From contig JAUFOQ010000013.1 in the NCBI GenBank assembly GCA_040285855.1, forward strand, positions 806,001 to 870,000: 64,000 bases of DNA, given 5' to 3'. This document shows positions 5,623 through 62,562 of the stretch, in pieces. A program made the position numbers and the translations under genes. The first letter of the stretch is position 1; each line of letters opens with the position of its first letter. Source of the DNA: Eukaryota sp. GEM-RC1. Lineage: Eukaryota. Under the pieces are notes generated by a model, which was not told where the DNA came from, did not search any database, and saw nothing but the letters and a program-made list of their open reading frames with translations.

Positions 5623-8439
5623 TCAATCAAAACATAAGAAGTTAACAATAGAGAATTCGCATGAGATCCGATTATTTGAGATTCTTTTGATGAGTTGTTC
5701 AGTCTCAGAGTCAATAGAGTTACTCCAAAGAATAATCTGAGTAACAGTGGAATTGACCTTCAAAGCATCAGCCAATGCAATGGCACCCTCATTACCAATA
5801 GAGTTATTCATAAGATATATCTCAGTAACAGTGGAATTCACCTTCAAAGCTTCAGCCAGTGCAATGGCACCCTCATTACCAATAGAGTAATACTTAAGAT
5901 CAATTTTAGTAACTGAACCATTCCTCATTTCTTCCAAAACCTGGCTCAATACTACAGTACTATTGTCCCTTTTTTTAGCTAATAATTGTGAAAATTTGTT
6001 CTTTGGCTTTGGAATTAAACCTTGAGAACTTCTAGAAAGAGGTGTTGCAATAGAGTTTTCACAAATTTCATTATTAGCAGGGTTGGATTTAAGACGTTCA
6101 ATTTCTTCTCTTAAAGAACGATTGTCAGTTTCCAAATTTAAAATTTGTTGACTAGAAGACTTTTCCTTGACGTGAAGCTCATTGTTTAGAGTAGTAATAC
6201 TTTGAATTTTTTGGAAAAGTTTAGAATTTTCATTTTTCAAGTTTAAAACTTCATCAGTGAGGTTCTTCTTTGCTCCCACCAGTTCGGTCCTCAACTTTGC
6301 CACGTCAGCAGTGAGTGTGGCAGTCGATGATTGGATTTGAAGAGGGACCATTAGGAGTAAGAATCTGCTCAGTAAAGGTTCAATATCGACGTCATCAAGT
6401 AAATCAGACAAAGTCTCAGAAATAACGTTTACAGTCTTTAAAGTACACGTTATGGATTTCAAACAACTATCGAACTGTGACATTGTCCAATCAGATTTTA
6501 AATTCTGCCAGGAATTACACAAACATTTGGCAAGAAAAACAGAATCAACATTAAAAGAAGAAAGAATTTCAAATATTTCTGGAGTTACTTTGATACCATT
6601 ATTATCAGTAGATTTGATTGATCTGAGACGTTGTTCATGTTTTTTAACAAACATGAGATCATTTAAAGAACTTGCTTGTTCAATAAATCCTGTATCAAAA
6701 TTAACTTCTATAAAGTTATTTCCAGCAGTAACTACTGACTTTACTTGAAAATAGGATCCTAAATAGGTCAATTCATAAGCATTTTCAGTAGTCAATTTGA
6801 TTCCACTTCCACTCAAGAACCCAAAAACTTTTGAAAACTTTCTACTGACACCTTCAGTATATCATCAAAGCTAAGTTCTTGTTCATTTGAATCAGCCCAT
6901 TGACTAGTCCAAAGGTTAGCAAAGTACTTAGAATAACAACATAAGTGAAGCCTATTTGTTTTAGCAATATAGTCTTTATACTTCAGTTGCACTTCATGAG
7001 GAGTTTCCCTCTTCAACTTTTCTAGAATAGTTGATCCTTGGAGAAAGAAGACTTTGTTACTAGACTGTAGTCCCTTTAGTTGAAGGTTGGTGCAGTGGGA
7101 GATCAAAGGAGTGTACTTTAAGAGTTTTGCGATCACATGAATGTCAAAGAGATTGGTTTCGTTGATGTCTAAAGGGGAGCCGTACATGGACAACATAATG
7201 GCTTCAAAGATCGAGGGATCTTCAACCATTCCCGAAGAGTTGATTTCAACGTGATCATGGTGATCTAGTTTTTCAAGGTATTTGGAAAAGAGAATGACAA
7301 TGGAGAAGTGACAGTGGAACTCTAAGTCCTCGAACTCAATAACACAGTCAGTGAGATGATTGTTGGATCGGAGATATTGTAGCTGTTCGATGGCTTCCTT
7401 GGCAAAAGTCAGATATGGAGAGCATTTGGGGGAGATTTCATACAACTTTGACTTTGTAATTATTAGACCTTGGAATCGGATCAACTTCGGATCGGATAAT
7501 CCGATCGGATTTCTCGGATCGGAGCGATTTTGTTGCTTTTGCTCGGATTCCGATTCGGATCGGATTTATCCTACCAGATCCGAAATATCCGATCGGATTT
7601 CTAATGATTTTGATACTGTTGTAGACCCAAAATACATTTGATTACTTTACTAATACTAATATAGATACATTAGTTGGTATCATTTAGTTATTATTTTTAC
7701 AAAAGTAATTACTGAATTTCACTGTATTGATCGTAAACCCCGTTTCTGTACTAATATTACTAGTTATATAAAACGATTGATTTGAAAATCTGACTGTTGA
7801 ACATGATTACGACTACGTCTGTCTCAAATGTCCTACTATTCCGCTGTAGATGTTCTCTCGGATTCTGCCGCCAGCAACATCGAAGTCCATTAATTTGGTG
7901 GAAGAGAAATGAAAGCACTTATACCAAACTTGCTCGAATCTTCTTTTATTGTTCAATACATGCATCATCTGTACCATGTGAAAGACTCTTTTCCCGTGTT
8001 GGGTTAATTGTGTCCAAAAAATGAACATCTCTCAAATGTGACACAGTTCAAGTATTGGTTTTACTCAATTCATGAACAAAACTTGGATTTATGGCTGATG
8101 ATAGACTTTTCCCAGGAGATGCCAATTAATGTTACTTTTTGACTAATAAAACTTTGTAGAATTTTGTTATCCTTCCTTTTACAAAAATGAAGTTCATAGC
8201 ACGTCGTTTCTTTATGGAACTAAAACAGTAATCTTACTGCAAAAACTAAAACAGAATTAATGAAATGTATTAGATAAAAAGGTCAATCCGATCGGATCTT
8301 TCGGATCGGATTCGGATATTGAACACCAGGATCCGGATCGGATTCAGATTTCGATCAGTCAGATCCGGATCGGATCGGATTTGAGATAAAAAATCCGATT
8401 CCAAGGTCTAGTAATTATGCTCTCTCGAAGACATATCAT
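5623..8439 (-). CDS. BTB-BTB-coiled coil-LRR protein, interrupted near its start by a hAT insertion (7464-8410) and a frameshift at ~6825
   Basis: Joins ORFs 6813-7484 and 5623-6816. Two BTB domains, coiled coil LTDEVLNLKNENSKL.., and three 28-aa LRRs (SIGNEGAIALAEALKVNSTVTEIYL). The ATG at 8439 corresponds to 845 in copy 1. Confidence 0.8.
7464..8410 (+). mobile_element. Non-autonomous hAT DNA transposon, 947 bp
   Basis: 17-bp TIRs TAGACCTTGGAATCGGA / TCCGATTCCAAGGTCTA and a perfect 8-bp TSD GTAATTAT (7456-7463, 8411-8418). The empty site is at 817-824. TCGGA subterminal repeats and a hAT dimerisation relic PLIWWK..LAR..ASSVPCERLFSRVG are present. Confidence 0.97.
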
Positions 8440-9706: not shown

Positions 9707-9955
9707 TTATATCGCAGCTGTAACAAAACAAATATAATCGAATTCAATGACAAAAAGGTCTCCATCACGAGAGGCTTTGACCAGGTACTGCAGAGCATTG
9801 TTTTCTGTCCTCTTTTCAAGACAATCGATACGGCAAAGGGGACATTGATTCAAGGACTCTGAACATTCGGAACAACAAGTATGTCCTTCGCAGCACATTA
9901 GGAGGGGAACGCGGTCAGAGAGATTGAACGATTTACAACAAACGAAGCAGTCCAT
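9707..9955 (-). CDS. Stand-alone RING-HC mini-ORF, copy 2
   Basis: MDCFVCCKSFNLSDRVPLLMCCEGHTCCSECSESLNQCPLCR, with the same truncation point and tail as 2103-2351. Confidence 0.6.
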   Translation of the reverse strand: MDCFVCCKSFNLSDRVPLLMCCEGHTCCSECSESLNQCPLCRIDCLEKRTENNALQYLVKASRDGDLFVIEFDYICFVTAAI

Positions 9956-17286: not shown

Positions 17287-18220
17287 ATGGACATCGTAGA
17301 TAATCCATTTATCTTAACAAATTTCTGTACCCTTTCTACTCATTTTCCCTTCATCCATATGATCAAATGTACCGATTCAAATGGATATACTTGTATATTA
17401 GGACATTCTGACGGTTCTGTCACTGTTCATCATCTTAAAGATGACAAATTCATATCTTCCCCTTCAGAATCATTTGCACTAAGGAATGCCATGAATTTAG
17501 ATGGATCTTCTTCTCCCAGCAGCAACGAGATCAAATCTGTAGCAATATCCTCACCAGACTATGGCCAGTTTTTTGCCATAGCATCGCAAACCCCTGAACT
17601 TCTCATATTCAAACAAACCGAACAAATAGCCAGCCTAGAGATACCTCATCCAGCAACAAAAGTCCAGTTCTCTCCCGATTCATTCAGATTATACGCAGCA
17701 GTCCATAACTACGTTTATGTCTTTTGGAATAGATGTTCAATGGACTCTCTTAGATCAGATAGAGTTCGATTCCCCAATTGTTGACATCTTCGTGTCTCAT
17801 CAAGATTATCTAGCCGTTGCTACTTCCACAGAATATGATTCAACCCTCATCCTCCTAGGTAAGTCCCCTTCTGGAGCCATGTCAATCTACCACTCAGTTG
17901 ATATCTCTTCCCAGGTATCAAAAGTATCTATATCTCCCTTGGTTTTCGATGATACAGACGCCAAAACCAGTACTGTATGTGTGGGGCTTCTTGATGGTTC
18001 TGTTTACTTCTACCCCTTCAATCTGGTAACTAATCGTCTTCAGACTCCTGGTAATCTGCAGGGATCTCATGCAGGGGAAATTGTAGATATTAAATGGTCG
18101 TTCTTGGGTGATTACGTGATGACGTCAGCAAGTGACAAGTCAGTGTTGAAGTTTGGTGTTACTGCTGAACATGGTTATGAACTGGGATTTAAGATTGATG
18201 TTTCTGATACACTGTCGTAA
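17287..18220 (+). CDS. WD40 protein, Seh1/Sec13-like; +1 frameshift near 17722
   Basis: Joins ORFs 17287-17784 and 17717-18220. Motifs SPDYGQFFAIAS (cf. HPEFGQxLASCS), VQFSP, and HAGEIVDIKWSFLGDYVMTSASDKSV. Confidence 0.7.
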
Positions 18221-19680: not shown

Positions 19681-22600
19681 CTAATAAGGATAATAATGAT
19701 GTTCATCATCAATGGAGTACGCTGCAAAAATGTGATCCCAGATCTTACTGTCATTCGAGTCTACTTTACTGACAATGGCGAGAGGAGTCTTACCTTTGAG
19801 ATACTCGTACATTGGATCAAAGTGACGACCATTCTTGAGAGGGCAAATAAGCAGTGCAATACCAAGTTCCGTAGCCTTGAGTGCAATATCATCAAATCTA
19901 GATTCCCAAGTACGACCATTAGGATCTTGAGGATGATTGTCTTCACAACCACAGTTAAATCTCTTACCATGATTAGGTGCATCCCCAATAACAAAGATAA
20001 TTCGATGACCATTAGGCCATTTGGCTTTTAACATTTCATCTAATCCAGTACAGATATCTTCTGCAACGTCATCACCTCCATCAGCAACAACTCCTCCAAT
20101 GGCATTCGAGAGAGCTGTCGCATTACCAAAAGGAATAAGTTCAACAGGAACTGAATCTCCAATATCACGATAGGCACAAACTAAGATTAATTAAAAAAAG
20201 AATAAACATACATGAAAAGAAACTGTTAATTTCTTGGCATCATACCCCATTGCACCAACAGACCGGGAGATATACTCCTCCAAGCCTTTCGCCATTTCTC
20301 TGATTTGATTTGCAGTTTGTTGAATATTCATGGAACTAGTGGCATCGAAAACAAAAGCTGCATATAAAGATAGATCGAGACGATGTTTGACATAATCAGC
20401 ATCAGAAATTCTGACAGCCAAGGAAAAAGGACCATCACTTGATTTACTTGGAAGTAGAAGAAGTTGGATTACTAGGAGGTTTGTCAATACTAACTTTCTT
20501 CCCCTTAGGATGAATCACGTCAGTAGACTTCTTATCAACAGGACCAGCCCAAACCTTTCTTGGAGTAATTCTTTCCTTAGAGGTGTTAAGCTCAATGTGA
20601 GTGAAACTTGCGTAGGAATAGCTACTACCACTTTCGAGTTGAACTTTGATTTGAGAAGTAATGTTGCTAGAGTTTCGGAGGTTCTTGGAAATAATAAAAA
20701 TTTTGTCAAATTTAAATTCTAACCCATCATCAATTCTTTCAATACAAATATCACCTGTCACCTTATTGATCTTAATTCCAAAACGAATATACTTATCGGC
20801 CATTCTCTTTACAAAGTACATTCGAAGTGTTGCTAGAGTTGGAGTATCAGGATTTGGATTAGCAGATTCGTAAACAGATACATATCCATTGTTAAAACTA
20901 AAAGTGATGGGACATTCACCATTAACTAAACTAAGGATGAAGCTACCTGTAGCATTGACATCGAATCTAATGCACAATTCACGTTCAAAGGAGCACGATG
21001 CCATTAAGTAAGCCCATCGATGATGACTCTGAGGTGTAAGAAGTATGTTGAAACCATACTCTAGTTCCTCTTCGTTGTTATAGCTAGCTTCAATCATTTT
21101 GTTTAGATAATCAGGAGAATCAAAAGAATCTGTTAGAATCAAGAAGTTTGCTTTTCCTCCAGATAGTAGTTCAAGGTCGTGTTTGGCTCGAAGACTTAGT
21201 GTGGCATAGACATTTCTCGGTATGACAACATGTTCGACATCACTAAAGGAAATCTTACTCGGAAGATGGCACTCAATAGTGAAATGATTATCTGGTTTCA
21301 GAATTGATTGAACAAATATCTCCTTTGTAACTGAAGAGATATTAAACGCTGACAGGTCCACCTTCGAATGTTCTTTCATGTTCTTAAGAGAGTGGCACAT
21401 ATCAAGAGCAACAGTTTCAGCAGCACCGTTGACTCCAAAATTCTGAACTAATTTGTAATAATTGTTCTTTTTTTCAGTTTCATCAGTGGGAATTCTAATG
21501 TAAGGTCTAAATGGAACTGCTCCATCATGAGTATAATACTTAGTAGCAGCAGTGACATGAAGATAAGTAGAAGGATGCTTCGTAACAGAAGACTTAAAGA
21601 TAACAGCAATCGGTCCATAGTGAACGTTAGTATTAGGTCCTAGAATTGAAAAGACTGTACGATCAGTACGAAGATCTTTATCAACATGGAATCCGATTCC
21701 TACCTTAGCTCCAGATTCGTCAGGAGCACCAACTAAGTGATTCAAATCAAGAGCTGCTTGAGCAATGTTCTTAGCTAAACGACCGAGTTCAGAGCGTTCT
21801 TCCTTTGAGACATCAGTACATTCCATTAGAACACGCATACCATCTGGACAAGTCATTGTCTTATTCAACAAACCATTCATTTCTATCTCAGTAGAGACAG
21901 CTAAGAAATCAGCAGCTTGTTCTTGGTTGGAGTAGTTTACTAATTGATAATGAGAGGCGGCAACAATCTGACGGACTTTAGCAGGGTCTGCAAGCTTGGT
22001 CTTCATCATATTAAGCGAGTAGAAAGCTCCATGAGTTAGACAAGATTCAAAGGTTTCTGGTTTAATTCGATGAACTGGACGGAGTCGCATTAACAATTCC
22101 CCAAGAGCTTTAATGTTTCTAGGTGTAGGAGATTTGGGAAGGAGTGACTGTAAACGGCGCTGATTGCTGACGTAATCTAACTTGCTTTCACCAGAAAACG
22201 TTCCAATATCAGGCATTAAGTTTCCCAGTATTTCAAATAATCTGATATTTCGATGAGAATATCTACGAACATGATCCAAGTCTCCTCTGTTTCTACAAGA
22301 AGCTCCATGACTACAAGGAGGACGGAATTCCAAAACACCTGGATGACTAAAGGTGTTCAAATGAATCTCGTCAACTGACTTACAACTGGTACCATCAGGA
22401 CATGGCTTCCGTTCTAAATGAGCGAACTTCTCCATGTGACTTTTAGTTGTCATCTCCGTACATTGGAAACCTCGAGGACAGACAATCTTTTCAGATGCAG
22501 AAGAACTGAAAGGATCATCAGCCAAATGGATTGGATGGGTGACGTCAGCTTGATGAAGGACAGTGAGGTCAACACAGTTAGGATTAGGGCAAGTCAAATG

Positions 22601-25600
22601 GTCATGATGTTTGAATTTAAGACAGTCTGCATCACGGCAATTATGACCTTTTTCACAGATCGGACGATGCCAGAAGCTTTCTCGATGATCAGGAGTTTGG
22701 TCCTTGCAGAGACTTCCGTGATGACAGGCTAGTGCATGAGTAAAGCTCAAATCATGACTGGAATCACGTTGATGTAGTCGGCAAGTGGAGAACTGTCGAC
22801 AAACAGATGGATGACGACACAACCACGAGTGAGTGTTGATCTGTTTTCTCTTACACTTATCAGACAACTCACATCGGTCAAGATGAAAGTAAATTTGTTT
22901 ATGCTCTTCATCATTAAGCTGAGTACATCTTCCAAAGAGGTCAGGACATGGAATGAAGGAGGTTGGAGTCATTAGAGGAGAACAAGACCGATCCATTCCT
23001 CGTCTGAATCTGGTAAAACTTTCTACATCACCTACTACACTGAAGATAACTCGTTGGAAGAACCTACCATAGATTTGTTCCATGAAACCCAGAATAGCCA
23101 TGACTGACTCAATGGGGTTTCTAAAAGCACCACAACCCAAAGGGGATATGATTAAATGAGTAACATTGTGACGAATAGCAGCAAGGAAGATTGAAACCCA
23201 ACGATTAAAGGTAAATTCGAATTGTTCCTTATTCAGGAAATCATCAAAACGAATTTCTGACATGGGTTTAATATCAGGACGTTCAATAGCAGCTGAAGAG
23301 ACAACATCAATAGTATAAGGTCGAGAAAGAGTCACAAGACCATGTGATTCAGAACTTTTGAAAATTTGAATATTTTCAGAAACAATTACATCAATGTCAC
23401 TACTTGACCAAGGATATTTGACAGGAGGAATTCTACTTCCTTCAACATTAGAAGAATCAAGAGCATAAGCCAAAGTACTCCTGCTAAACAGACTTTCTTC
23501 TTGAGCACTAGCTCCAGTTCTATACCCTCCTCCAGGAGAAACTTCAGTAGCCATGTTAAGACAAGCAATCTTTACTCCAGGATCAGTACCATATTCGTTG
23601 ATGAAATCAATGGCGACTTCAAAGCAATCCTTATTTAAAAAATCAAATGGACCAGGACCAGGGTCTGGAGCGGGGGGTCTTTTGAAAGCCCTACGAATAG
23701 AGGAGTTTGAGTACACGTGATTAGTGATTTGATTAGTCCTTAAAGCAATCGTTTGGGAACTGTTTTCACCTTCTCTAACGTAAGAATATTGACCTCTTGA
23801 ACAGCAGTACAAGGTATTCAGTTGAGCAATGACCAACAAGAATCTGTAGGGGTGATTGTTACGTAAGTCACGATTACATTCTTTGAGAGCAGAAAGATAA
23901 GGTGCAAAAGAATGATCATTAAGCTGAATCCAAGATCGGTAATTAGAAATGGCTATTTGCTCGTAGCCACCAGTTCTGCTTCTCATTTCAGATGCAAAGA
24001 CCTTAGGGAAAGGTGAATTAGGAGAAAACATCTGTACTACTACCTTAGTTAAAGGATGGCCCTTGATAACGATTTCGTTAGGCCAAGTAGGAGTAGTACT
24101 AGTCCAGAGCAACACGTGTCTTTTAGTAGGATCAGTAGTCAAATAAGAGTTCTTTCTAACACAAGGATTAGCGGCAGATAGAGCAGCTAGATAATCATCT
24201 GTGGGTTCTTCAAAAGGATAGTAAACAACTTCGAGGCAACTAGAGTGGTGAGCGTAGTGTTGGAAGGGAAGGACAGTGAAATGAAACTTGTCTATTTTAC
24301 CAGCGTAAAGACAATCAGCAGTAGATCTTCCTTTAAAAATAGACTCAGGAGAAAAGACAGTAGATGATAAGAACAAAAGTTCAAGATTGTAAAATCTGTT
24401 GTTGACGTGATGTTTGACAATATCAACATTAATGGTTTCCTTATCAATGTTGTTTCTAATATCTCTAGAAACCCTATCAACTATATTTGAAGGAACAAAC
24501 ATGACAGTAGCCCGATAACATCCTTTGAAGGTTGTAATGGTCCTGGATTTCGTATTAATTGTAGCTTCAGCTCCATTAACTATTAATTCTTGTAGAAGTT
24601 CAAGACCTATAGCACAAGACACAGTGACACGAACGTGGACAATGGAATCCAAAGACTCAAGAACCTCTACTGCATGGTCAGCACAATCACTTAAGGTTTT
24701 GGTTAAGTAAACGTCAACTTTAGAAGTAAGAGCAGCACCCTTAAAGTCCTCTATTCGCATGAAGAACTCAAACGAAATGGAATAGAACTCTTCAGATCTT
24801 TCAGTTGGCACGTGATCATCAAACACTTTGACTCTCAGAGACTTGAATTGTTCAGACAGAGAGGGATTTAGAGGGCGAATTGTAGAGACGATTGGAGAGT
24901 CTCTCTGGGCAGCTAATCGTTCGATATCATTGGTATGTACGAACATTAGAGGGTGTGAGGGAGAAGTAGCTGGGACAGTATTAGTATTTAACAACTTTGA
25001 TTGGTTATGATGGAGCTGCTGCAGATTAATCTTTCTCAAATCACCACTTCCACTAGTCAAAGCCATTTTGTTATTCTTAAGTTGTTCAGACGGTCGGAGA
25101 TTAAAAGATTCTAAAATTTCAATTATTTGTACAATTTTGGGTCGTAGAATTGGGTCGGGGTTTAGACACCTGTTAATTATACTACACAATACATCCGGAA
25201 TTGACCTATTAAAGGACAAAGCTTTGTCACGATATTTAGCTCCCATTACAGCATATTGGCTCATTCCTTCAAATGCTTCCTTGTTTTGGAAACAATTCAT
25301 ATAACATGATTCCAATAGAGTAAATGTCACTTTGCGGGGTCATTTGGTTGTCAAACTGCTCAGGAGCAGCATAGCGTACAGTCATTGCATTGTTTCTTGG
25401 AACTGTTGTGGTTGATTCAATGTTCCGAGAAGTTCCGAAATCAGCAATTCTTACTCTATTATCCACCAATAAAACATTTCCAGGTTTGAGATCGCCATGC
25501 ACAACTGCTTTACTGTGGAGAAAGCTAACACCTTGACAGAGTTGTTTCGCATAATCGACAGTGAGAAAGGAGAATGAGTTGGGGGAGGGAAGAGAAGAAG

Positions 25601-26052
25601 TAGCTCTTTCCATGACAATTCCGATCCTATCCTCCCAAAAGCAGAGACCATAGACACGGAGAACAGCAGGGTGATTTAGTTGAATAAGAAGGCTCATCTC
25701 CTTCTGGAGCTTTAGTCTTCCTTTTTCAGTAAGTGATATCATTTTAACAGCAACAGGAAGTTGGAACCACTCTGCAGCATAGACAACTGCAAAACCTCCT
25801 TCATCGATCTTGTTAAAAAGCTTGATTTGATTCGATGGGATTTCAGGACAGAGATCGCCATTACGAGCAGCTTCGATGAGCTCTCTAAGAGAATAATTAG
25901 GTTTTTTTAACAAGGGGGGAATCTGTGCGGCATATTGGACATTGTTTCAAAGAGGATGCACATTGAGCACAAGCGGTATGTCCGGAGTCACATAAAAGTA
26001 ACGGTAAGCGCTGAGAAAGATTGAATGGCTTACAGCAGGAGAAGCAATCCAT
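19681..26052 (-). CDS. Giant multidomain protein (~2,100 aa): RING-HC, TKL-type kinase, unknown region, bacterial-type PARG (DUF2263/TIGR02452), PBZ-like CCHH array, putative ART-fold domain, beta-rich domain, VWA
   Basis: ATG at 26052 gives MDCFSCCKPF..CDSGHTACAQC..CPICR. After +1 at the A7 run (~25902) come kinase motifs EGGFAVVY, VAVK, HGDLKPGN, DFG, APE. A +1 at ~25290 leads into the 1628-aa ORF with LNMA..PGGGYRTGASAQEE and LGCGAFRNP. A +1 at ~20450 leads into VWA (FDATSSM, YRDIGD, GGDDVAED, IGDAPNHG), with an intron at ~20181-20211. Confidence 0.8.
20181..20211 (-). other. Short intron (27 or 31 nt) in the VWA region
   Basis: Minus strand reads GTATGTTTATTCTTTTTTTAATTAATCTTAG. The GTTTAT donor (27 nt) restores SFHVFCAYRD directly. 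The GTATGT donor (31 nt) needs one more base upstream. Confidence 0.7.
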
Positions 26053-28152: not shown

Positions 28153-29454
28153 ATGCAAAGATTTTTCGAACCCAAACAGTCAAGGTTTTCTGAACCTAGA
28201 CAGAAGAAAGCCAACACTGGTCTGTCATTGAACAGCGTCCCTACTTGGAAGGACTACTCTCACAACATTCCATGTCCCAAGAATCCTCATTTCCCCGTAA
28301 ACGACGATATCAACTCCAAAGTGTCTCTGTGGAAAGGCGATTCCACTGCTCTCAAAATCGATTCCATTGTCAACGCTGCTAATCAATCTCTTCTTGGAGG
28401 AGGTGGTATCGATGGCATTATCCACACCAAAGCAGGTCCTAAACTGCGTAGATTTTGCCAGACTCTTAATGGCTGCAGAACTGGTTATACTAAGAAATCT
28501 CCTGGCTTTAACCTTCCTTGCCAATACATTCTTCACACCGTTGGTCCCATTGGTGAACGTCCTGCAGAGCTACATTCCTGTTACCAAACCATTCTTGAAC
28601 ATATTGATGGGGATACAATCCGATCTACCGCCTTTTGTGGAATTTCTACTGGTATCTATGGGTATCCTATTAACAGTGCTGTTCACATTGCTCTTAAAAC
28701 TGTTAGGGAATGGTTGGAGATCCCCGAGAATTTGGAGAAAGTTGATCGTTTGGTCTTTGTAGTGTTTGATCACGCATCTGTTGAGGCTTATCATCGGTTT
28801 TTCCCAATCTACTTCCCTCATTGCATTGATACTAATCCTGTAGAAGACTCTGATAGTCAAAGTGATGAAGAAATTGAAGAAATTGTTGCTAGTTGCTCGT
28901 CATCTGATGACCTGATCACACAGTCAAGTGAAGAATCAGCAGAGGAAGTAATAGAAGAAGGTGTTGAAGACAGACATGAAGAAGAAGCAGATTGTGAACA
29001 ATTTGTAGTTGAAGAGAAAATGGAATCAGCTGAAGTTGATCTTGTTGAAGACAAAACTGAACAAGAAGCAGATTGTGTACAACCTGTAGTTGAAGAGAAA
29101 ATGGAATCAGCTGAAGTTGATCTTGTTGAAGACAAAACTGAACAAGAAGCAGATTGTGTACAACCTGTAGTTGAAGAGAAAATGGAATCAGCTGAAGTTG
29201 ATCTTGTTGAAGACAAAACTGAACAAGAAGCAGATTGTGTACAACCTGTAGTTGAAGAGAAAATGGAATCAGCTGAAGTTGATCTTGTTGAAGACAAAAC
29301 TGAACAAGAAGCAGATTGTGTACAACCTGTAGTTGAAGAGAAAATGGAATCAGCTGAAGTTGATCTTGTTGAAGACAAAACTGAACAAGAAGCAGATTGT
29401 GTACAACCTGTAGTTGAAGATCAAGAAGAACCAACAATGATGTCCGATGAATAA
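28153..29454 (+). CDS. MacroD1/2-type ADP-ribose glycohydrolase macrodomain with acidic tandem-repeat tail
   Basis: VSLWKGDST, IVNAANQSLLGGGGIDGIIH, ILHTVGP and ISTGIYGYP. Confidence 0.92.
   Translation: MQRFFEPKQSRFSEPRQKKANTGLSLNSVPTWKDYSHNIPCPKNPHFPVNDDINSKVSLWKGDSTALKIDSIVNAANQSLLGGGGIDGIIHTKAGPKLRRFCQTLNGCRTGYTKKSPGFNLPCQYILHTVGPIGERPAELHSCYQTILEHIDGDTIRSTAFCGISTGIYGYPINSAVHIALKTVREWLEIPENLEKVDRLVFVVFDHASVEAYHRFFPIYFPHCIDTNPVEDSDSQSDEEIEEIVASCSSSDDLITQSSEESAEEVIEEGVEDRHEEEADCEQFVVEEKMESAEVDLVEDKTEQEADCVQPVVEEKMESAEVDLVEDKTEQEADCVQPVVEEKMESAEVDLVEDKTEQEADCVQPVVEEKMESAEVDLVEDKTEQEADCVQPVVEEKMESAEVDLVEDKTEQEADCVQPVVEDQEEPTMMSDE
28978..29419 (+). repeat. 81-bp coding tandem repeat (27 aa, ~5.4 units)
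   Basis: Unit EQEADCVQPVVEEKMESAEVDLVEDKT starting at 28978 (diverged), 29059, 29140, 29221, 29302 and 29383 (partial). Confidence 0.97.
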
Positions 29455-32913: not shown

Positions 32914-33160
32914 TTAAGTAAATTGAAGGGAAATTCCATTTGAGGAATTTGAATTACCAATGAAGTTTCCAAGAAACTTGATACAATCAGAAGAATAATT
33001 AACAAAAGGAATAGCAACTCCATCGTACAGAACAATATCATCCATACGACTAATAACAACACTCTTGTTCAAGTTGATTGTCAAACCAATTTCACCAGAA
33101 AGAGCGACGAATCGTGCAAAACGTGGTTTCAATGTATGCATTTTGCCAATTAAAAAAGAA
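32914..33160 (-). mobile_element. Non-LTR reverse transcriptase relic (end of RT domain)
   Basis: EIGLTINLNKSVVI..IPFVNYSSDCIKFLGNFIG parallels SIGLTINFDKCFLV..IPIIDYSTQCFRFLGTFLG at 43601. Confidence 0.7.
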
Positions 33161-33169
33161 AGCTGATCA

Positions 33170-33761
33170 AGTTGTTGATAACTGAGAGCAAATCTTTGGA
33201 CTGTTTTCTTGAAAGATTCAAAGAAAAATTCTATTGGGTTTTGCTCTGGGCAGTATGGAGGTAGTTTAAAGTAAAGCTTCAGAGATATTTAAGTGGATGT
33301 GGATTCGGCAACCATCTAAGACGATGCAACTTCTCAGTCCACCTCTAATTTATTGAAACCTTAGACAGAGAAGGGATTGCAAAAAGCAAATTAACGGTTG
33401 TCTATCAAAATAGTCTTCCTGTATATGCGAATGAACTTAACCCTTTGCATACAAGCTAAAATCTGACTATATCTCATGGGGAAACTTTGAACATGTATAG
33501 AACTACCCTTGGGAGACCAACCTTTGTTCTGATGACGTCATCACTCTGGAACGATATTTCATCGATAAAGAGCAGATGTTTCTGAACAACTGGTCCTATA
33601 TAAAAGAAGATTGTTCTTTCAAACTGTTCAATAAGCTCACGTTTTGCTCTATGAACAATGGCCTGGCATTTTTTATAAGTGAAACCAGCTCGTACAAATG
33701 CGCAATGAACGGCAGCTACACATACTTCCACACCACTATTTCTTCTTAGAAGTATAACCAT
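33170..33761 (-). mobile_element. Tc1/IS630-family DDE transposase relic
   Basis: GFTYKK..LLFIDEISF and, further downstream, KLPPYCPEQNPIEFFFESFK (cf. LPPYSPDLNPIE). Confidence 0.8.
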
Positions 33762-43559: not shown

Positions 43560-45250
43560 TTCTAATTTAAAAGTGTTTTTCACGTTTCATCGAACTTTCT
43601 TTGAGTATTGGTTTAACAATCAATTTTGATAAGTGTTTTCTTGTTGTTAAGTCTTCGAATGTTTCTAATCTTGGTTTTTGTAATATTCCTATCATCGATT
43701 ATTCTACTCAATGTTTTCGTTTCCTTGGCACGTTTTTGGGAAATTATGAGAAAATTCATTCAGAATTGGAGAGTTCATTAACTACAATTGAAGAAAAACT
43801 AAATCAAATATTATCTTTAGATGTGAGCAAACATGTTTCCTTTGCTATGCTTCAGGTCTGTTTTTCCGGGAAAATTAATCATTTTTTACGTTCATTAGAC
43901 TATTCCCTTACTGAAACATTTGCCAAGAAATTTAATTCTATTAGAACAAATTTTCTCTCTAACTTGGCTGAAATTGATGAGTCTAAGATTCCATTTCATG
44001 CTTTTTATTCTTCTGAATTCGCAGGAGTAGGTTTCACCCATGCAAAAATCATTAGAAAATCTGCTCTTTTAGGAGGTGTTAAGAATTTTATGTTTGAATT
44101 TTTGAAACGGTTTCCCTTGGATGGAATCAATCTGTTGAATTCCAGTAATTGCCGTTGGATTCAATCTGCTAAAGATTTGTTATCATCTTTGTCTCCTGAA
44201 ATGTGGGAATCTTTGTTCCCTGCTCATTTGAAGGAGACTCCTTTAAAAATATTTCATCTCTACCATCTGCTGTATGTAAGCTGCAAAATAAATTGACAAG
44301 GAGTTTGAACTCTTGGACTTTAATAATCGTATTAGCTTGGCTAAAACTAATAGTCCCGAGTTCGCTGCTTTTTTAATCGATCTTTGTAATAGTGGACCTT
44401 CTGGATTTATTTCTCAAATTCCAAAGGTGTATGGATTACATCTATCTGATGAAGCTTGGATGATCAATATGCGTCTTCGTTTGGCTATTTGGCCTGCAAA
44501 TTTATTAAACTATTCAACGTGCTCTTGTGGAGCTAATGGTGTTTTTCGTCATTTAATTAATTGTCGTTATTTTATTCATCTCCGTGCAGTAATTCATGAT
44601 GGTGTACGTGATTCTTGTTATTCCATGTTTAAAGCACATGGTTTTCACTCTAAAGTTGAACCAGTTTTGAATCATCTTTCAGAAAATGAATTTACTGATC
44701 AAAAACGAGGGGATCTACATACTCCGTGGCTTAAATCGAGTCAAGCATTAATGGATTTTACTACAGTAGATGTATGTAACAAATCTTGTGTTAGTAGGAT
44801 ATTAGATTCTTCTTTTAATCCATTAACAGCAGCTGAAAAGCTCAAACACACCAAGTATGACTCTCAAGTAGAAGAATTAAATAGAAACTAATATTCCAAA
44901 TTTGTGTTTCAACCTTTTGCTGTTTCTCTTTTTGGATCTATTAGTCCTGCTGGTGATCAATTTTTCAAGGATTTCGAAGAATTGTGTAAAGAAAAGAAGC
45001 GTAAGTTTAGAATGGCTGAATGGAAAAACCGTATAGTGTTTTCCATATATCGGAATATGCCTTTCTATTTCTCTAGATTAATTGAGAAATTGTACAAGTT
45101 TGGTGTGAAGGTTCATGTAGATAAACGTAATCTTTTACCGGGTGGTGATGAAGTCGTTTGGATTTAATCTTAGTATTATTTGTTTGTTTTTACAATTTCA
45201 TAGTTTGTAGAAAGGTTACCTTATTGGGTGCCGGATAAACATCTCTCTCA
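43560..45250 (+). mobile_element. 5'-truncated RLE-encoding non-LTR retrotransposon (CRE-like), decayed
   Basis: RT end IGLTINFDKC..FRFLGTFLG, then MRLRL, zinc knuckle CSC..HLINC, IHDGVRD, KRGDL, MDFTTVD, AAEKLKHTKY and FQPFAVSLFG. There is a frameshift at ~44250 and an in-frame TAA at 44889. Confidence 0.88.
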
Positions 45251-45872: not shown

Positions 45873-47807
45873 TTAGCTCCTGATCCCATTAGTTGAGATT
45901 CTTCTGATGAGTTGTTTAGTCTTAGAGTCAATAGAGTTACTCTGAAGATCAATCTGAGTAACAGTGGAATTGACCTTCAAAGCATCAGCCAATGCAATGG
46001 CACCTTCATTACCAATAGAGTTGAACCTAAGATCAATCTGAGTAACAGTGGAATTGACCTTCAAAGCATCAGCCAATGCAATGGCACCTTCATTACCAAT
46101 AGAGTTTACCCTAAGATCAATCTGAGTAACAGTGGAATTGACCTTCAAAGCATCAGCCAATGCAATGGCACCTTCAGTACCAATAGAGTTATACCCAAGA
46201 TTAATCTGAGTAACAGTAGAATTGACCTTCAAAGCATCAGCCAATGCAATGGCACCTTCATTACCAATAGAGTTACCCCAAAGATCAATCTTAGTAACAG
46301 TGGAATTGACCTTCAAAGCACCGGCCAATGCAATGGCACCTTCAGTACCAATAGAGTTATTCCCAAGACTAACCTCACTAACAGACCCATTCCTAATTTC
46401 TTCCAAAACCTCCCTCAATCTAGGTTTCAACTTACTCAAATCAATCTCATAATTACTATTAACTTCCCTTTTTACAGGTATTTCTTGTTGTAATTTCTTC
46501 TTTGTCTTTGGAATTAAACCTTGAGAACTTCCAAAAGAAGGTGGTGCAATAGCTTTGTGAGGAATTTCATTATTAGGAGAGTTGAATTTTAAAATTTCGG
46601 ATTTAAGACGTTCAATTTCTTCTCTTAAGAAGTGATTGTCGGTTTCCAAATTTAAAATTTGTTGGTTAAAAGACTTTTCCTTGTCATGAAGCTCATTGTT
46701 GAGAGAAGACAAACTTTGAATATGATTGACAAGTTCAGAATTCTCACTTTTCAAGTTCAAAACTTCATCACTGAGTTCATCAATTTTAGTTTTCAATGAT
46801 TCATTTTCATCAATCAAAAATAATTGGTCATTAATAACACCACCAGCTTCCAAAACATCTAAAGTATTTAAAATATCAGTGATTTCATTAATTCGAGGTC
46901 GTAGTGATGGATCTGGATTTAAACACTTCATTATTATCTCTTTCAAACATTCTGGTGTTGAATCATCAAAAGGTAATGGTTTACCTTGAACTTTTGCTCC
47001 AACAATCTGCATCATTGAAAAACCAGCAAAAGCTTCTCGCCCAGTTAAAAGTTCATATAGTATTAATCCAAGTGAATAAATATCACTAAAAGGACTAGCA
47101 TTTGATTCAAACTGCTCAGGGGCAGCATACTTAGGACTCATGGCATTTGTTCTAGTCACGAGAGTTGTGGCGGCGAGGTTCTTGGAAGTGCCGAAATCCG
47201 CAACTCTGACATGGTCATCGACCAAAAGGACATTGGCTGGTTTTAAATCTCCATGTACAACAGACTTGAGATGGAGGAACTTCACTGCCTGGCAAAGTTC
47301 TTTAGTGTATCTGACAGTAGTTGGAGAGAGAAGACTTGGGGAGGGGGAGGGAGAAGAAGCTAATTCCATGACGATACCAATGGAATTATCAAAGAAGGTG
47401 GTACCGAACACACGTATGACAGCAGGATGGTTGAGATTGAAGAGAAGATTCATTTCTCTCTGGAGTTCTATGCGTCCTTTCTCTGTGAGGGAGACCATCT
47501 TGATGGCGACGGAGAGATCAAACCATTGGGCAGAATAAACGTCAGCAAATCCTCCTTCCGCGATCTTATCTCCGAGGACGATTTGATCTGAGGGAATTTG
47601 TGGGCAGAGTTCTCCATCGCGAGATGCTTTGACCAGGTCCTGCAGAGCATAGTTTACTTTCATCTCTTCAAGACAATCGCAACGGCAAAGGGGACATTGA
47701 TTCAAGGACTCTGAACATTCGGAACAACAAGTATGTCCTTCGCAGCAGATTAGGAGGGGAACACGGTTAGAGAGATTGAACGATTCACAACAAACGAAGC
47801 AGTCCAT
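45873..47807 (-). CDS. RING-HC - TKL-type kinase - coiled coil - RI-type LRR protein, copy A (644 aa)
   Basis: Intact ORF with a C3HC4 RING, EGGFADVY, VAIK, HGDLKPAN, DFG, APE and six LRR units. Confidence 0.93.
   Translation of the reverse strand: MDCFVCCESFNLSNRVPLLICCEGHTCCSECSESLNQCPLCRCDCLEEMKVNYALQDLVKASRDGELCPQIPSDQIVLGDKIAEGGFADVYSAQWFDLSVAIKMVSLTEKGRIELQREMNLLFNLNHPAVIRVFGTTFFDNSIGIVMELASSPSPSPSLLSPTTVRYTKELCQAVKFLHLKSVVHGDLKPANVLLVDDHVRVADFGTSKNLAATTLVTRTNAMSPKYAAPEQFESNASPFSDIYSLGLILYELLTGREAFAGFSMMQIVGAKVQGKPLPFDDSTPECLKEIIMKCLNPDPSLRPRINEITDILNTLDVLEAGGVINDQLFLIDENESLKTKIDELSDEVLNLKSENSELVNHIQSLSSLNNELHDKEKSFNQQILNLETDNHFLREEIERLKSEILKFNSPNNEIPHKAIAPPSFGSSQGLIPKTKKKLQQEIPVKREVNSNYEIDLSKLKPRLREVLEEIRNGSVSEVSLGNNSIGTEGAIALAGALKVNSTVTKIDLWGNSIGNEGAIALADALKVNSTVTQINLGYNSIGTEGAIALADALKVNSTVTQIDLRVNSIGNEGAIALADALKVNSTVTQIDLRFNSIGNEGAIALADALKVNSTVTQIDLQSNSIDSKTKQLIRRISTNGIRS
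45930..46380 (-). repeat. 84-bp LRR-coding tandem repeat
   Basis: Near-identical units encoding NSIG(N/T)EGAIALADALKVNSTVTxIxLxx. Confidence 0.95.
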
Positions 47808-49509
47808 GTTAGAAGTGATTTAATTTCAATTTTGGACAACTCGTTCAATCCAGTTCTTTGTCAAAAAGAAGGTCTCATACAATCATAGCTCTGATCTTTG
47901 TTAAGAAGGCTTTGGTTATTTGAATCGAACTACATGTTTTATAACTCCAATCATAATCTACAAACATTTAAAAACAAGTGCTCTCTAAAATGTGGTCTTC
48001 ATCGTCTTTCTACCTACTGAGTTACACTGTATCCATCCCACTCCACTAGTGACTAATTATCCAGTCTCATCACTTTCTATCATTGAGTGTGATGTCAAAC
48101 TGGCATTAGAAAAATAGTTTTATCTTCTTCTCCCTACCTCTAACTACTTCTCCAATTCATATATTTACGTCAGTAGATAATCTGACATCAACTTCTTCTA
48201 AGTAAACGTCTTTTATTGGATGCCTCGTCGTGGTGGCGTTACGGTTTGACCAATCGTCCTCTAACCTCTCCTTCATCACGTGACCGATCCCGTGATCATT
48301 TCACTTAGGGTTTAGGCTGGAGAGTAAATGACATTTACATTTTGTATTTGGTATCTTTTCAGTCCGTTTCAGGTGTCTAAACTGACAGTTGCTACTTTTG
48401 TTAAATGGATCAATCTTTGCTGAAATTCCTAACCATGTTGAGTTGTGCCTCCTCGTTATGAAGATTCACAAACTCAGATGTAAGGAGCACTTTGTGTACT
48501 CATATACTAATTTGAAGGTTTTTGTGCAGTCTTGTGTGATAATGATTATGATTCGAGTTTAAAGCAGTATTTTAGAACAAGTCTTAATGGGTTTGGAGAA
48601 CGAATATTTTTTGATACATTAAGTGTCCAAAGATGTATTATGCAAGCTCCATTCAGTTCCCCCGGGGTAAAACACAAGAAGTATTTGGACTGATAGTGCA
48701 CATCTGAACGTTTAGGATCATTGAATTGATTAAGATAGTGCTGAGCCACGAATTCCAGTCACAACTATAGTAGTGGGATTCTATACACAGAGTTTTAACG
48801 TTCGAAATTGGAAGAACAAAGCATACACTTAGTATTCTGTATTGTACTTGTATTCTATTTCTATTCTATTATTGCATTGTCCTCGGTTTTTTACATCAAA
48901 TTTTTTGATTAACACACAACTCCATTATATTTTTGTTGGACAGTTCAGTTGGTTGAACATTTTTGATGTATTGCTCTACATCGAAATCCGAAAATAATTA
49001 CGGAGAGATGATCAGAGTTTCAATCTACTATAAGTTTTAAATTACCAGTTCTAAAGCTGTCCTGGTCTTAATTAAAAGAATGTCTATGTTATCTCCAGAA
49101 AACGGTCAAGTAGTACTTTGTTTGCATACAGACGTAAAAGAAAAGACATGACTATTTTATAGAGTTTGCCAACTGTTCCAGCAGATCAAAACGAAAATGA
49201 CTCGAAAAGCTTAAATTGAAGACAAATACAGTCGTACTAGTATTTCAAACATTTGCTTTATGTTTTTACGAATTTAAACCCTACTATTTTCTGTGTCACG
49301 TCAACTTCCATGTATTGACGTAACACATCTTGACACAGAACTTAAGTCAGTCAATTGTTGGATATCGTCATTTAACTAAGAGTTCTCTTTTGATAATTGA
49401 TGTATTTTGTTAGCCAAAGGTAATTGTATAGTATCAAGTAGGATTATTTCACTTTATAAACACCTTTATCTTACCTCTTTCACCAACAGGTATCAATAAT
49501 TATTGTCTT

Positions 49510-51344: not shown

Positions 51345-51900
51345 GTCTACTTGTGTGTGAGGCTGTTTCTGTCATACAATCAACTGTCAGAAGTTGATTC
51401 ATTTAAGATCAATCAGTCACAACTGTTTATGTGATCGTTGCTTAGAATTGTTTAAGAGCAGTGTTTTTCATGGGAAAATCGCACCAGTTTTAAATACCTT
51501 GTCTGAGTCAATTACAAGAGATAACAGCAGAGGAGTTTTGATTGGTCAATGGTTGTTCTCTCAAGAAATAATTATGGACTTTACTACGGGTGATCTTTGT
51601 AACTCAACTTCTGTTAACAAAATTTCAGACGAAAATTATACAGCTCTTAAAACTGCTGAAAGGAAAAAAATAGCTCGTGATGGTGAGAACTAATTACTGA
51701 GATAAATTCTCGTCGACAAAATCTCTTTGTTTTCCATCCTTTTGCTATTTCTCTTTACAAAACTGTTTGGCTTTTTCTGACAAAAACTTTTTCAATCTTT
51801 TGGCAAATTGTGTAAGCAGTATGGAAAGAATATTAACGAGAGTAATTGGAGAGGAATGTTGTCATTTTGCTCTTTAAAGCATTTTTTAGGTGTTTTGATT
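51345..51900 (+). mobile_element. RLE non-LTR retrotransposon 3' relic
   Basis: HTINCQKLIHLRSISHN..FHGKIAPVLNTLSE..IMDFTTGDLCN..LKTAERKK aligns with 44550-44860. Confidence 0.8.
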
Positions 51901-60305: not shown

Positions 60306-60627
60306 TCACAAACACATATTATTGTTATCAACAAGTATGGTATACAGTGTACACACAACAGTTTTCTGTTTCTTTTACGCAACAGTTGATACCACTCTCT
60401 CCGCTTCTTGATAATGCCAACGTCCGTACCCCTGCAGACGAAAGTCCTGGAAAAAAAAGTACGTTCTAAAAGTAAGAAATCAAGAGTTCATATAGATAAT
60501 AACGTAGTTTGATTCGGACAATGCAAGCCTTTTTACCAAGACCAGAGCTGGGATTGTATGAGACCTTCTTTTGACAAAGAACTGGTTGAGAGAGTTGTCC
60601 AAAATTGAAATTCAATCACTTCTGAAC

Positions 60628-62562
60628 ATGGACTGCTTCGTTTGTTGTGAATCGTTCAATCTTTCTAACCGTGTTCCCCTCCTAATCTGCTGCGAAGGAC
60701 ATACTTGTTGTTCCGAATGTTCAGAGTCCTTGAATCAATGTCCCCTTTGTCGTAGCGATTGTCTTGAAGATAGGAAAGTAAACTTTGCTCTGCAGGACCT
60801 GGTCAAAGCATCTCGCGATGGAGAACTCTGCCCCCAAATCCCCTCAGATCAAATCGTCCTCGGAGATAAGATCGCGGAAGGAGGTTTTGCTGAAGTTTAC
60901 TCCGCCCATTGGTTCGATCTCTCCGTCGCCATCAAGATGGTCTCCCTCACAGAGAAAGGACGCATAGAACTCCAGAGAGAAATGAATCTTCTCTTCAATC
61001 TCAACCATCCTGCTGTCATTCGTGTATTTGGTACCACCTGCTTTGCTAATTCCATTGGTATCGTCATGGAATTAGCTTCTTCTCCCTCCCCCTCCCCAAG
61101 TCTTCTCTCTCCAACTACTGTCAGGTACGCTAAAGAACTTTGCCAGGCAGTGAAGTTCCTTCATCTCAAGTCTGTTGTACATGGAGACTTAAAACCAGCC
61201 AATGTCCTTTTGGTTGACGACCATGTCAGAGTTGCGGATTTTGGCACTTCCAAGAACCTCGCCGCCACAACTCTCGTGACTAGAGCAAATGCAATGAGTC
61301 CTAAGTATGCTGCCCCTGAGCAGTTTGATTCGAGACCTGGTCCTTTTAGTGATATTTATTCTCTTGGATTAATACTATATGAACTTTTAACGGGACGAGA
61401 AGCTTTTGCTGGTTATTCAATGATGCAGATTGTTGGAGCAAAAGTTCAAGGCAAACCATTACCTTTTGATGATTCAATACCAGATTGTTTGAAAGAGATA
61501 ATAATGAAGTGTTTAAATCCAGATCCATCACTACGACCTCGAATTAATGAAATCACTGATATTTTAAATACTTTAGATGTTTTGGAAGCTGGTGGTGTTA
61601 TTAATGACCAATTATTTTTGATTGATGAAAATGAATCATTGAAAACTAAAATTGATGAACTCAGTGATGAAGTTTTGAACTTGAAAAGTGAGAATTCTGA
61701 ACTTGTCAATCATATTCAAAGTTTGTCTTCTCTCAACAATGAGCTTCATGACAAGGAAAAGTCTTTTAACCAACAAATTTTAAATTTGGAAACCGACAAT
61801 CACTTCTTAAGAGAAGAAATTGAACGTCTTAAATCCGAAATTTTAAAATTCAACTCTCCTAATAATGAAATTCCTCACAAAGCTATTGCACCACCTTCTT
61901 TTGGAAGTTCTCAAGGTTTAATTCCAAAGACAAAGAAGAAATTACAACAAGAAATACCTGTAAAAAGGGAAGTTAATAGTAATTATGAGATTGATTTGAG
62001 TAAGTTGAAACCTAGATTGAGGGAGGTTTTGGAAGAAATTAGGAATGGGTCTGTTAGTGAGGTTAGTCTTGGGAATAACTCTATTGGTACTGAAGGTGCC
62101 ATTGCATTGGCCGGTGCTTTGAAGGTCAATTCCACTGTTACTAAGATTGATCTTTGGGGTAACTCTATTGGTAATGAAGGTGCCATTGCATTGGCTGATG
62201 CTTTGAAGGTCAATTCTACTGTTACTCAGATTAATCTTGGGTATAACTCTATTGGTACTGAAGGTGCCATTGCATTGGCTGATGCTTTGAAGGTCAATTC
62301 CACTGTTACTCAGATTGATCTTAGGGTAAACTCTATTGGTAATGAAGGTGCCATTGCATTGGCTGATGCTTTGAAGGTCAATTCCACTGTTACTAAGATT
62401 GATCTTGGGGGTAACTCTATTGGTAATGAAGGTGCCATTGCATTGGCTTATGCTTTGAATGTGAATTCCACTGTTACTAAGATTTATCTTGGGGGTAACT
62501 CTATTGGCTCCAAGACTAAACAACACATCAAAAGAATGTCAAATAATCGGATCACGTGCTAA
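60628..62562 (+). CDS. RING-HC - TKL-type kinase - coiled coil - RI-type LRR protein, copy B (644 aa)
   Basis: Intact inverted paralog of 45873-47807; ATG at 60628. Confidence 0.93.
   Translation: MDCFVCCESFNLSNRVPLLICCEGHTCCSECSESLNQCPLCRSDCLEDRKVNFALQDLVKASRDGELCPQIPSDQIVLGDKIAEGGFAEVYSAHWFDLSVAIKMVSLTEKGRIELQREMNLLFNLNHPAVIRVFGTTCFANSIGIVMELASSPSPSPSLLSPTTVRYAKELCQAVKFLHLKSVVHGDLKPANVLLVDDHVRVADFGTSKNLAATTLVTRANAMSPKYAAPEQFDSRPGPFSDIYSLGLILYELLTGREAFAGYSMMQIVGAKVQGKPLPFDDSIPDCLKEIIMKCLNPDPSLRPRINEITDILNTLDVLEAGGVINDQLFLIDENESLKTKIDELSDEVLNLKSENSELVNHIQSLSSLNNELHDKEKSFNQQILNLETDNHFLREEIERLKSEILKFNSPNNEIPHKAIAPPSFGSSQGLIPKTKKKLQQEIPVKREVNSNYEIDLSKLKPRLREVLEEIRNGSVSEVSLGNNSIGTEGAIALAGALKVNSTVTKIDLWGNSIGNEGAIALADALKVNSTVTQINLGYNSIGTEGAIALADALKVNSTVTQIDLRVNSIGNEGAIALADALKVNSTVTKIDLGGNSIGNEGAIALAYALNVNSTVTKIYLGGNSIGSKTKQHIKRMSNNRITC
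62055..62510 (+). repeat. 84-bp LRR-coding tandem repeat
   Basis: As in copy A, except that the last two units differ. Confidence 0.95.

Follow-up and report, generated by a model that had tools for sequence, protein, structure and literature searches.

Does a long minus-strand gene of Eukaryota sp. GEM-RC1 encode an ADP-ribosyltransferase (ART), and if so, of which kind? The gene lies in a stretch of 64,000 nucleotides (GenBank assembly GCA_040285855.1, contig JAUFOQ010000013.1, positions 806,001 to 870,000), here called the window. An earlier note, made from the letters alone, had proposed an unannotated ART-fold domain, similar to DarT and DUF3626 proteins and fused to a PARG macrodomain as toxin-like and antitoxin-like halves of one protein. 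We find that the domain belongs to a real family with a predicted ART fold, nearest to the effectors SopF and OspC, of the kind that Salmonella and Shigella inject into cells, and tentatively propose that it modifies proteins. The three motif blocks on which the proposal was built were present in the proposed order, all within one minus-strand frame (20444..25330; 1,628 codons). The domain and its motifs are as follows (residue numbers are those of the frame; counts refer to the 90 aligned domains described below).

21140..22198, minus strand: predicted ART-fold domain, SopF/OspC/DUF3626-like, residues 1045-1397, defined by an AlphaFold2 model, Foldseek, VIA-align and 192 relatives
22078-22061, minus strand: PVHRIK
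22070..22072, minus strand: His1087 on strand 1 (E41-45 in the model), predicted to open the H-F-E triad, in 89 of 90
22030-22016, minus strand: GAFYS
about 22010-21720, minus strand: helical insertion of ~100 residues between strands 1 and 2
21682-21662, minus strand: DKDLRTD
21614..21682, minus strand: Asp1217 (89 of 90), Phe1227 (88), Tyr1238 (84) and Gly1239 (86)
21655-21638, minus strand: VFSILG
21622-21602, minus strand: HYGPIAV
21286-21260, minus strand: HFTIECHLP
21266..21292, minus strand: D-x-H-x3-E-x-H, with His1349 (89 of 90), the predicted catalytic Glu1353 (85) and His1355 (86)
21238-21218, minus strand: VEHVVIP, running 2 bases beyond the start that the earlier note gave for the domain

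The domain is indeed unannotated. Positions 21140-22198 matched no family of Pfam, NCBIfam or PADLOC at E≤1 and none of PHROGs at E≤0.001. No PDB sequence matched better than E 0.11, and matches to Csy3 and a nanobody (E≥0.11) were set aside as chance. A phmmer search of 1.84 billion representatives recovered 192 relatives at E≤0.001, in which the motifs of the earlier note are conserved columns; the domain is therefore not a chance pattern. We analyzed the best 150 of the 192 together with the paralogue P0002 (151 proteins). The alignment comprised 89 near-full domains and that of the window (90 rows), and 62 partial domains were excluded from residue counts. At a median pairwise identity of 24%, conservation in the three motif blocks (0.52-0.55) was ~2-fold that of the helical parts (0.24-0.30). 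H-F-E was present in 84 rows and E-x-H in 83, so that the strand-1 His and the terminal Glu emphasized by the earlier note are both conserved. The Glu is absent in 5 rows; a small clade (P0073, P0078, P0119, P0142) carries His or Gln in its place and keeps the remaining motifs.

The family extends over metamonads, Diphylleia, Gefionella, bdelloid rotifers and a clade among phage head genes. Half of the relatives looked up (15 of 30) came from named eukaryotes, namely GEM-RC1, TZLM1-RC, Kipferlia, Diphylleia, Gefionella, Rotaria and Adineta. Rotifer-type members are also encoded at 44 metagenome loci (L003-L046), in some cases with several copies per contig. A word-index protein search found just 3 paralogues among proteins of 895-2,849 residues and no relative among those of 194-618 residues; the full HMMER search was needed for the rest. 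The domain had no tblastn match in phages and plasmids at E≤1. Scans of GTDB genomes with alignment A3 or P0088 confirmed no member, but used exact patterns and do not exclude bacterial members. We conclude that this is a real ART-fold family outside every family library scanned.

An AlphaFold2 model of the domain, built from 36 rows, scored well (predicted local distance difference test, pLDDT, 91.2; predicted template modelling score 0.89). It predicts a split beta-sheet ART fold, with the helical insert after strand 1 and the His, Phe and Glu of the triad each on a strand. The modelled layout is H-Y-E-like, with His on strand 1, an aromatic residue on strand 2 and Glu on a later, catalytic strand. 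In Foldseek, SopF took the top two ranks (E about 1e-3, probability 1.00), followed by CopC; no match reached E≤0.001. Against viral models, a DUF3626 protein ranked second. Using VIA-align on 48,161 chains, Z≥8 was obtained for 9 chains, every one of the ART superfamily: SopF (Z 11.3; root-mean-square deviation 3.8, 207 residues aligned), OspC3 (11.3 and 10.7), CopC (10.5), Tpt1 (9.7), DarT (9.4, 9.1 and 8.7) and DarT1 (8.6). The top four chains are protein-modifying effectors, while the best non-ART chain reached only Z 5.8, confined to the helical insert. Thus, the predicted fold agrees with the earlier proposal, and no competing fold appeared. Its likeness to DUF3626 also holds, through SopF and a phage DUF3626 protein (see below), whereas DarT is more distant (Z 8.6-9.4 versus 10.5-11.3). 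Judged from the model, the domain is nearer to SopF/OspC/DUF3626 than to DarT.

We compared the predicted active site with these effectors. SopF carries DUF3626 (PMC6682159; papers given by PMC number are cited from excerpts of their text). An hhalign comparison of the family profile with one phage DUF3626 protein over strands 2-4 gave a probability of 41% and a score of 33 (maximum of 18.4 in 30 shuffles), and homology to the DUF3626/SopF catalytic core is detectable. In CopC the triad is H137-F183-E325, and E325/H327 correspond to E326/H328 of OspC3; activity is lost in E325A but not in H137A or F183A/F207A, and it also requires D172 and D230 (PMC9239266). Hhalign aligned IECHLP of the window domain to LEYHIP of OspC3, which contains E326/H328. 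By analogy with CopC E325, we infer that Glu1353 would be the catalytic residue. Asp1217, Phe1227 and Tyr1238-Gly1239 appear to correspond to D177, F188 and F211-G212 of OspC3, mapped by eye from motif order and spacing; the OspC aspartates and the SopF target have been described (PMC11598138). Mapped likewise by eye, the second OspC aspartate (OspC3 D231, CopC D230) falls on a Thr in 76 of the 90 rows. Arginine riboxanation by the family is unlikely because this aspartate seems to be replaced. His1349 is specific to the family and sits in the loop preceding the Glu strand. PF12294 matched neither the domain at E≤1 nor 28 short relatives at E≤10, with the limit that HMMER filters drop weak matches. 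Neither PF06128 nor C-terminal ankyrin repeats were reported in the whole open reading frame or the relatives scanned. In summary, the family resembles the SopF/OspC/DUF3626 enzymes by predicted fold and catalytic signature, yet is not recognized by the DUF3626, OspC or DarT family models.

The gene surrounding the domain, whose extent we defined from the paralogues P0002 and P0004, encodes in order a RING finger, a kinase, a region of ~450 residues, a microbial PARG, PBZ-like fingers, the ART-fold domain, an apparently beta-rich part and a vWA domain. The PARG anticipated by the earlier note is therefore part of the same protein, with its motif intact. The parts outside the ART-fold domain are as follows.

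25903..26052, minus strand: RING finger, probable gene start (RING families matched at E 2e-6 to 3e-4, short of the cut-off; P0002 begins with a 66%-identical stretch)
25097..25946, minus strand: protein kinase domain (Pkinase E 2e-35), split by a frameshift near 25290 and collinear with P0002 across two frames
23741..25093, minus strand: region of ~450 residues from kinase to PARG; only P0005 has ~60 residues in common
23021..23734, minus strand: microbial-type PARG macrodomain (PF10021 E 4e-14, TIGR02452 E 2e-17, both over cut-off)
23533-23495 and 23140-23123, minus strand: PARG motifs GGG-x7-QEE (intact) and LGCGAF loop, by motif scan
22253..22948, minus strand: eight Cys/His repeats of PBZ type, 4 fitting the strict pattern
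20546..21133, minus strand: post-ART domain, apparently beta-rich, common to 6 of 151 relatives, without a Pfam match
19684..20451, minus strand: vWA domain, set off by the frameshift near 20445; the C-terminal vWA of P0004, which is in frame, is 47% identical to it (VWA_4 weak, E 0.013)
20181-20211, minus strand: probable 31-nt intron inside the vWA part (GTATGT..TTAG), with a further frame break adjoining

The vWA domain belongs to the window gene, because P0004 holds PARG, fingers, ART-fold domain and vWA in a single frame. P0002 has the RING, kinase, fingers and ART-fold domain and lacks the PARG block. Relative to P0002 the window gene is a mosaic, with 51-76% identity over RING-kinase and 88% from the third finger onward. 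The 450-residue region at 23741..25093 had no Pfam match and was not reached by a profile of the relatives' pre-PARG regions; its single-sequence structure model was unusable (pLDDT 31).

Association with PARG recurs in the family. Among 28 long relatives selected from the best matches, 19 contain PF10021 and 7 contain PBZ (PF10283). With a local profile, PARG was detected in 36 of 151 relatives, never downstream of the ART domain, and upstream of it in 30 of the 35 relatives having at least 600 upstream residues. GG..QEE was kept by 30 of the 36 carriers. Of the carriers, 32 have a full ART domain; in 24 of these the ART and PARG sites were both intact, only the ART in 6 (4 with loops substituted, 2 with loops missing from the sequence) and only the PARG in 2. 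Four relatives combine an intact-looking ART with a PARG without QEE, and P0002, an 89%-identical paralogue, keeps all catalytic residues without any PARG. Further partners are kinase, RING, Roco, GBP, WWE, vWA and classical arginine ART; in the Rotaria protein P0022 a classical arginine ART (PF01129) occupies the position of PARG in others. The window Cys/His repeats had no Pfam match and fit the PBZ spacing in 4 strict or 8 loose repeats. A profile built from whole relatives matches the PBZ of APLF at E 4e-5. A simple PARP motif pattern was found in 0 of 151 relatives; a PARP domain thus seems not to share the chain.

Is the family confined to eukaryotes? The gene for P0127 follows a portal gene on a viral contig; we therefore reject a eukaryote-only family. 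On a contig related to that of P0127, a portal gene precedes the family member and a major head gene follows it. Phage members at L052:8001-11189 and L053:7992-11378 lie downstream of portal genes, and one is fused to an InPase domain (PF18823). The phage head likely packages the products of these genes. When viral contigs were scanned by pattern with the window domain, a rotifer protein or a rotifer-type alignment as query, no member was confirmed; sensitivity was low, as P0127 did retrieve the phage clade from the same collection. In the tree, P0127 and four further proteins without fingers form a group (SH-like support 100), and a 13-row clade unites the window domain with proteins of GEM-RC1, TZLM1-RC and Kipferlia (support 99). 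As this is a midpoint-rooted FastTree tree with long branches, no direction of transfer can be read from it. P0088 and P0118 have hydrophobic, signal-peptide-like starts, a divergent macrodomain-like region and the ART at the C-terminus; from their sequences they are possibly secreted bacterial proteins.

How might the protein work? We propose that the domain is an ADP-ribosyltransferase of the SopF/OspC/DUF3626 type, which would use nicotinamide adenine dinucleotide (NAD+) to add single ADP-ribose units to a protein target, and that the PARG fused upstream would strip these units. His1349, preceding the Glu strand, may help in acceptor choice. The fingers may hold the protein at ADP-ribosylated sites, and the trigger may come from the N-terminal parts, which are interchangeable (RING-kinase in the window protein; Roco, GBP or a second ART elsewhere in the family). 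One protein would then likely constitute a reversible signalling switch in defence or stress. A protein target is favoured because the nearest structures modify proteins. The coupling to PARG and the immune-type shuffling of modules (kinase, Roco and GBP fusions; the mosaic of the window gene versus P0002) count in favour of the reading as a whole. We hold a protein mono-ADP-ribosyltransferase, reversed by its fused PARG and triggered via exchangeable N-terminal modules, as a tentative reading in which doubt slightly outweighs confidence.

Several observations weigh against it. The structural resemblance is modest (template modelling score 0.35 by query, identities of 10-13%), and enzymes with nucleic-acid substrates, DarT and Tpt1, lie within 2-3 Z units of the top. 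The overall match to the OspC profile is weak (hhalign probability 2.5%, score 22.6; 20 shuffles reached at most 16.0). The best-documented substrates of PARGs are the ribose-ribose bond and nucleic-acid adducts (PMC11833690, PMC7050489), so that a single protein-linked unit may not be a PARG substrate. Moreover, 15 full domains with at least 300 upstream residues lack PARG by profile and all keep His and Glu; note that some of these proteins may be incomplete, and that P0088 and P0118 by eye seem to hold a divergent macrodomain. In the fingers, an aromatic residue after the first Cys, which presumably stacks on adenine in APLF, occurs in 0 of the 4 strict window repeats versus 79 of 219 repeats in more distant relatives. 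Binding of poly(ADP-ribose) (PAR) by the window copy is uncertain, since its strict fingers are without this residue. Finally, the window gene shifts frame near 25905, 25290, 20445 and 20215, i.e. four times in about 6.4 kb.

What product the PARG would erase leads to a serious rival, because PARGs specifically reverse the ribose 2'-OH bond on RNA and in PAR. The domain may write this linkage, as PAR without being a PARP or on the 2'-OH of RNA, and PARG and PBZ would be the matched eraser and readers. The only hydrolases that removed 2'-OH-linked ADP-ribose from RNA were of the PARG type, and PAR contains this same bond (PMC11833690). PBZ has been described as a module that binds PAR (PMC4245714), each carrier detected by the profile has a macrodomain of PARG type, and none of the 151 relatives shows the PARP pattern. 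However, the closest solved relatives act on proteins, PARG-less members occur, and both PARG and PBZ may serve PAR from an ordinary PARP elsewhere in the cell; we consider this writer unlikely. Equally doubtful is its wider form, an unrecognized ART family of phages and microbial eukaryotes (metamonads, malawimonads, CRuMs and bdelloid rotifers), related in structure to SopF and OspC, that is no PARP yet makes PARG-cleavable ADP-ribose, as polymer or on RNA 2'-OH, with its own readers and eraser, as a one-protein immune switch. The loss, inactivation or replacement of PARG while the ART remains intact would suit a second serious rival, a sensor-effector, in which fingers and PARG detect and trim ADP-ribose made by PARPs or a pathogen toxin and thereby activate the ART on another target or for NAD+ destruction. 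The PARG fold without QEE in four relatives resembles a binding-only sensor, and both SopF (PDB titles) and CopC (PMC9239266) need a host cofactor for activation. This, too, seems improbable, as 30 of the 36 PARG partners retain the full catalytic motif and regulation of the ART by upstream domains is hypothetical.

Least favoured, and very improbable, is a DarTG-like protein that modifies DNA bases and combines toxin with antitoxin in a single chain. In its favour, DarT and DarT1 are genuinely related in structure, most long members carry a fused macrodomain, and one clade of the family is encoded among the head genes of phages. Against this, DarT scores below SopF, OspC and CopC, no DarT family (Pfam, NCBIfam, PADLOC) matched the domain or the 28 short relatives (E≤10), DarG is ALC1-like rather than PARG-like (PMC7050489), and near-identical paralogues do without the macrodomain. 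An ART and a macrodomain do lie in one chain, as the earlier note had it; an antitoxin of the DarTG kind is only partly supported, given a PARG-type module that P0002 lacks and that has lost QEE in four relatives. Independent of these readings, the family could be real and the window copy a decaying pseudogene, given its frame breaks and the gene fragments and duplicates in the region. However, the stop-free frame of 4.9 kb retains every catalytic residue, and three of the four breaks lie in or adjoin single-base runs, as with the A7 run near 25905 at the RING-to-kinase frameshift. The neighbouring genes for a MIF4G domain (T6 run near 36285) and a WD40 protein (near 17720) likewise shift frame at runs of T or G, where no intron signal is seen. 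Breaks at single-base runs and similar shifts in neighbours make assembly error likelier than decay; the four frameshifts are probably assembly errors, and we regard the pseudogene as quite improbable. Introns were rejected as the cause of the RING/kinase and kinase breaks: the paralogues leave no space for them and splice signals are absent. Note that assemblies of the named relatives are nanopore-based (PMC11316075). Split genes across the window can be read as possible assembly errors. Apparent frame changes also occur near 14680 and 54960.

The window gene lies among eukaryotic genes (MIF4G, AATF, BTB, Roadblock and RING-kinase-LRR, the last with leucine-rich repeats). About 2 kb past the RING start, with a ThiF gene between, is a macrodomain gene (28153-29454, plus strand; PF01661 E 1e-32, acidic repeat tail), probably a chance neighbour. 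Long RING-kinase genes at 45876-47819 (minus strand, leucine-rich repeats shown) and 60562-62559 (plus strand) and RING-only fragments at 2151-2351 and 9755-9955 (both minus strand) belong to the same expanded family as the front end of the window gene. The BTB genes at 1-798 and 5626-7565 are near-duplicates. Broken pieces at 32917-33288, 43571-44888 and 51361-51690 resemble retroelement open frames; the two pieces at 43571-44888 had no Pfam match at E≤0.01.

Transferases with the H-F-E/E-x-H signature have been characterized in bacterial effectors injected into animal cells. Here a domain of the same type resides in distant eukaryotes, often in several copies, and in the head regions of phages. 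The family may point to the pool that gave rise to SopF and OspC. An ART, an intact PARG and PBZ-type fingers are repeatedly joined, which would place writer, reader and eraser in one chain and offers a testable reason for bacterial-type PARGs with PBZ repeats in rotifers and protists, namely a candidate writer in the same protein. We found no published description of the family; Slade 2011, the ART surveys of the Aravind group and supplements lay outside this search and may already name it. SopF, OspC and DUF3626 are absent from the main text of PMC9503650 and do not occur in the excerpted text of PMC12522546.

A eukaryotic microbial-type PARG with PBZ repeats was described in Adineta vaga (Perina et al. 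2014, PMC4245714). It shares the PARG-PBZ fusion with the window protein, and the Adineta relative P0047 has PF10021, PBZ and the ART-fold domain. The excerpted account names PARG and PBZ and no transferase. Head-packaged and polyvalent ARTs among phage head genes were surveyed by Iyer et al. 2022 (PMC9503650, section 27). Like these, the phage clade of the window family lies downstream of a portal gene, one member having an InPase domain; section 27 names N4-like, ORF28, p0068 and Alt/VIP2 ARTs, one of which the clade may represent.

DarT/DarG likewise pairs an ART fold (Z 8.6-9.4) with a macrodomain. In contrast to the two-gene operon with its ALC1-like DarG (PMC7050489), the window partner is PARG-type (PF10021/TIGR02452), fused in the same chain and dispensable in paralogues, and no DarT family matches the domain. 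The arginine ADP-riboxanases OspC3 and CopC (PF06128) share with it Z scores of 10.5-11.3, the H-F-E triad, E-x-H and the [FY]G motif, and the Asp-to-Phe spacing is 10 residues in the window family versus 11 in CopC and OspC3. They differ in their PF06128 match, in the ankyrin repeats, none being reported for the window family, and in the second Asp, apparently Thr here. Salmonella SopF (DUF3626, PF12294; PDB 7dn8/7dn9) is the best structural match (Z 11.3, Foldseek rank 1), at 10% identity, without a PF12294 match for the window domain and with ~100 extra helical residues inserted in the latter. SopF is an injected effector, whereas the window domain is joined to PARG and PBZ-type fingers within a multidomain protein of a eukaryote.

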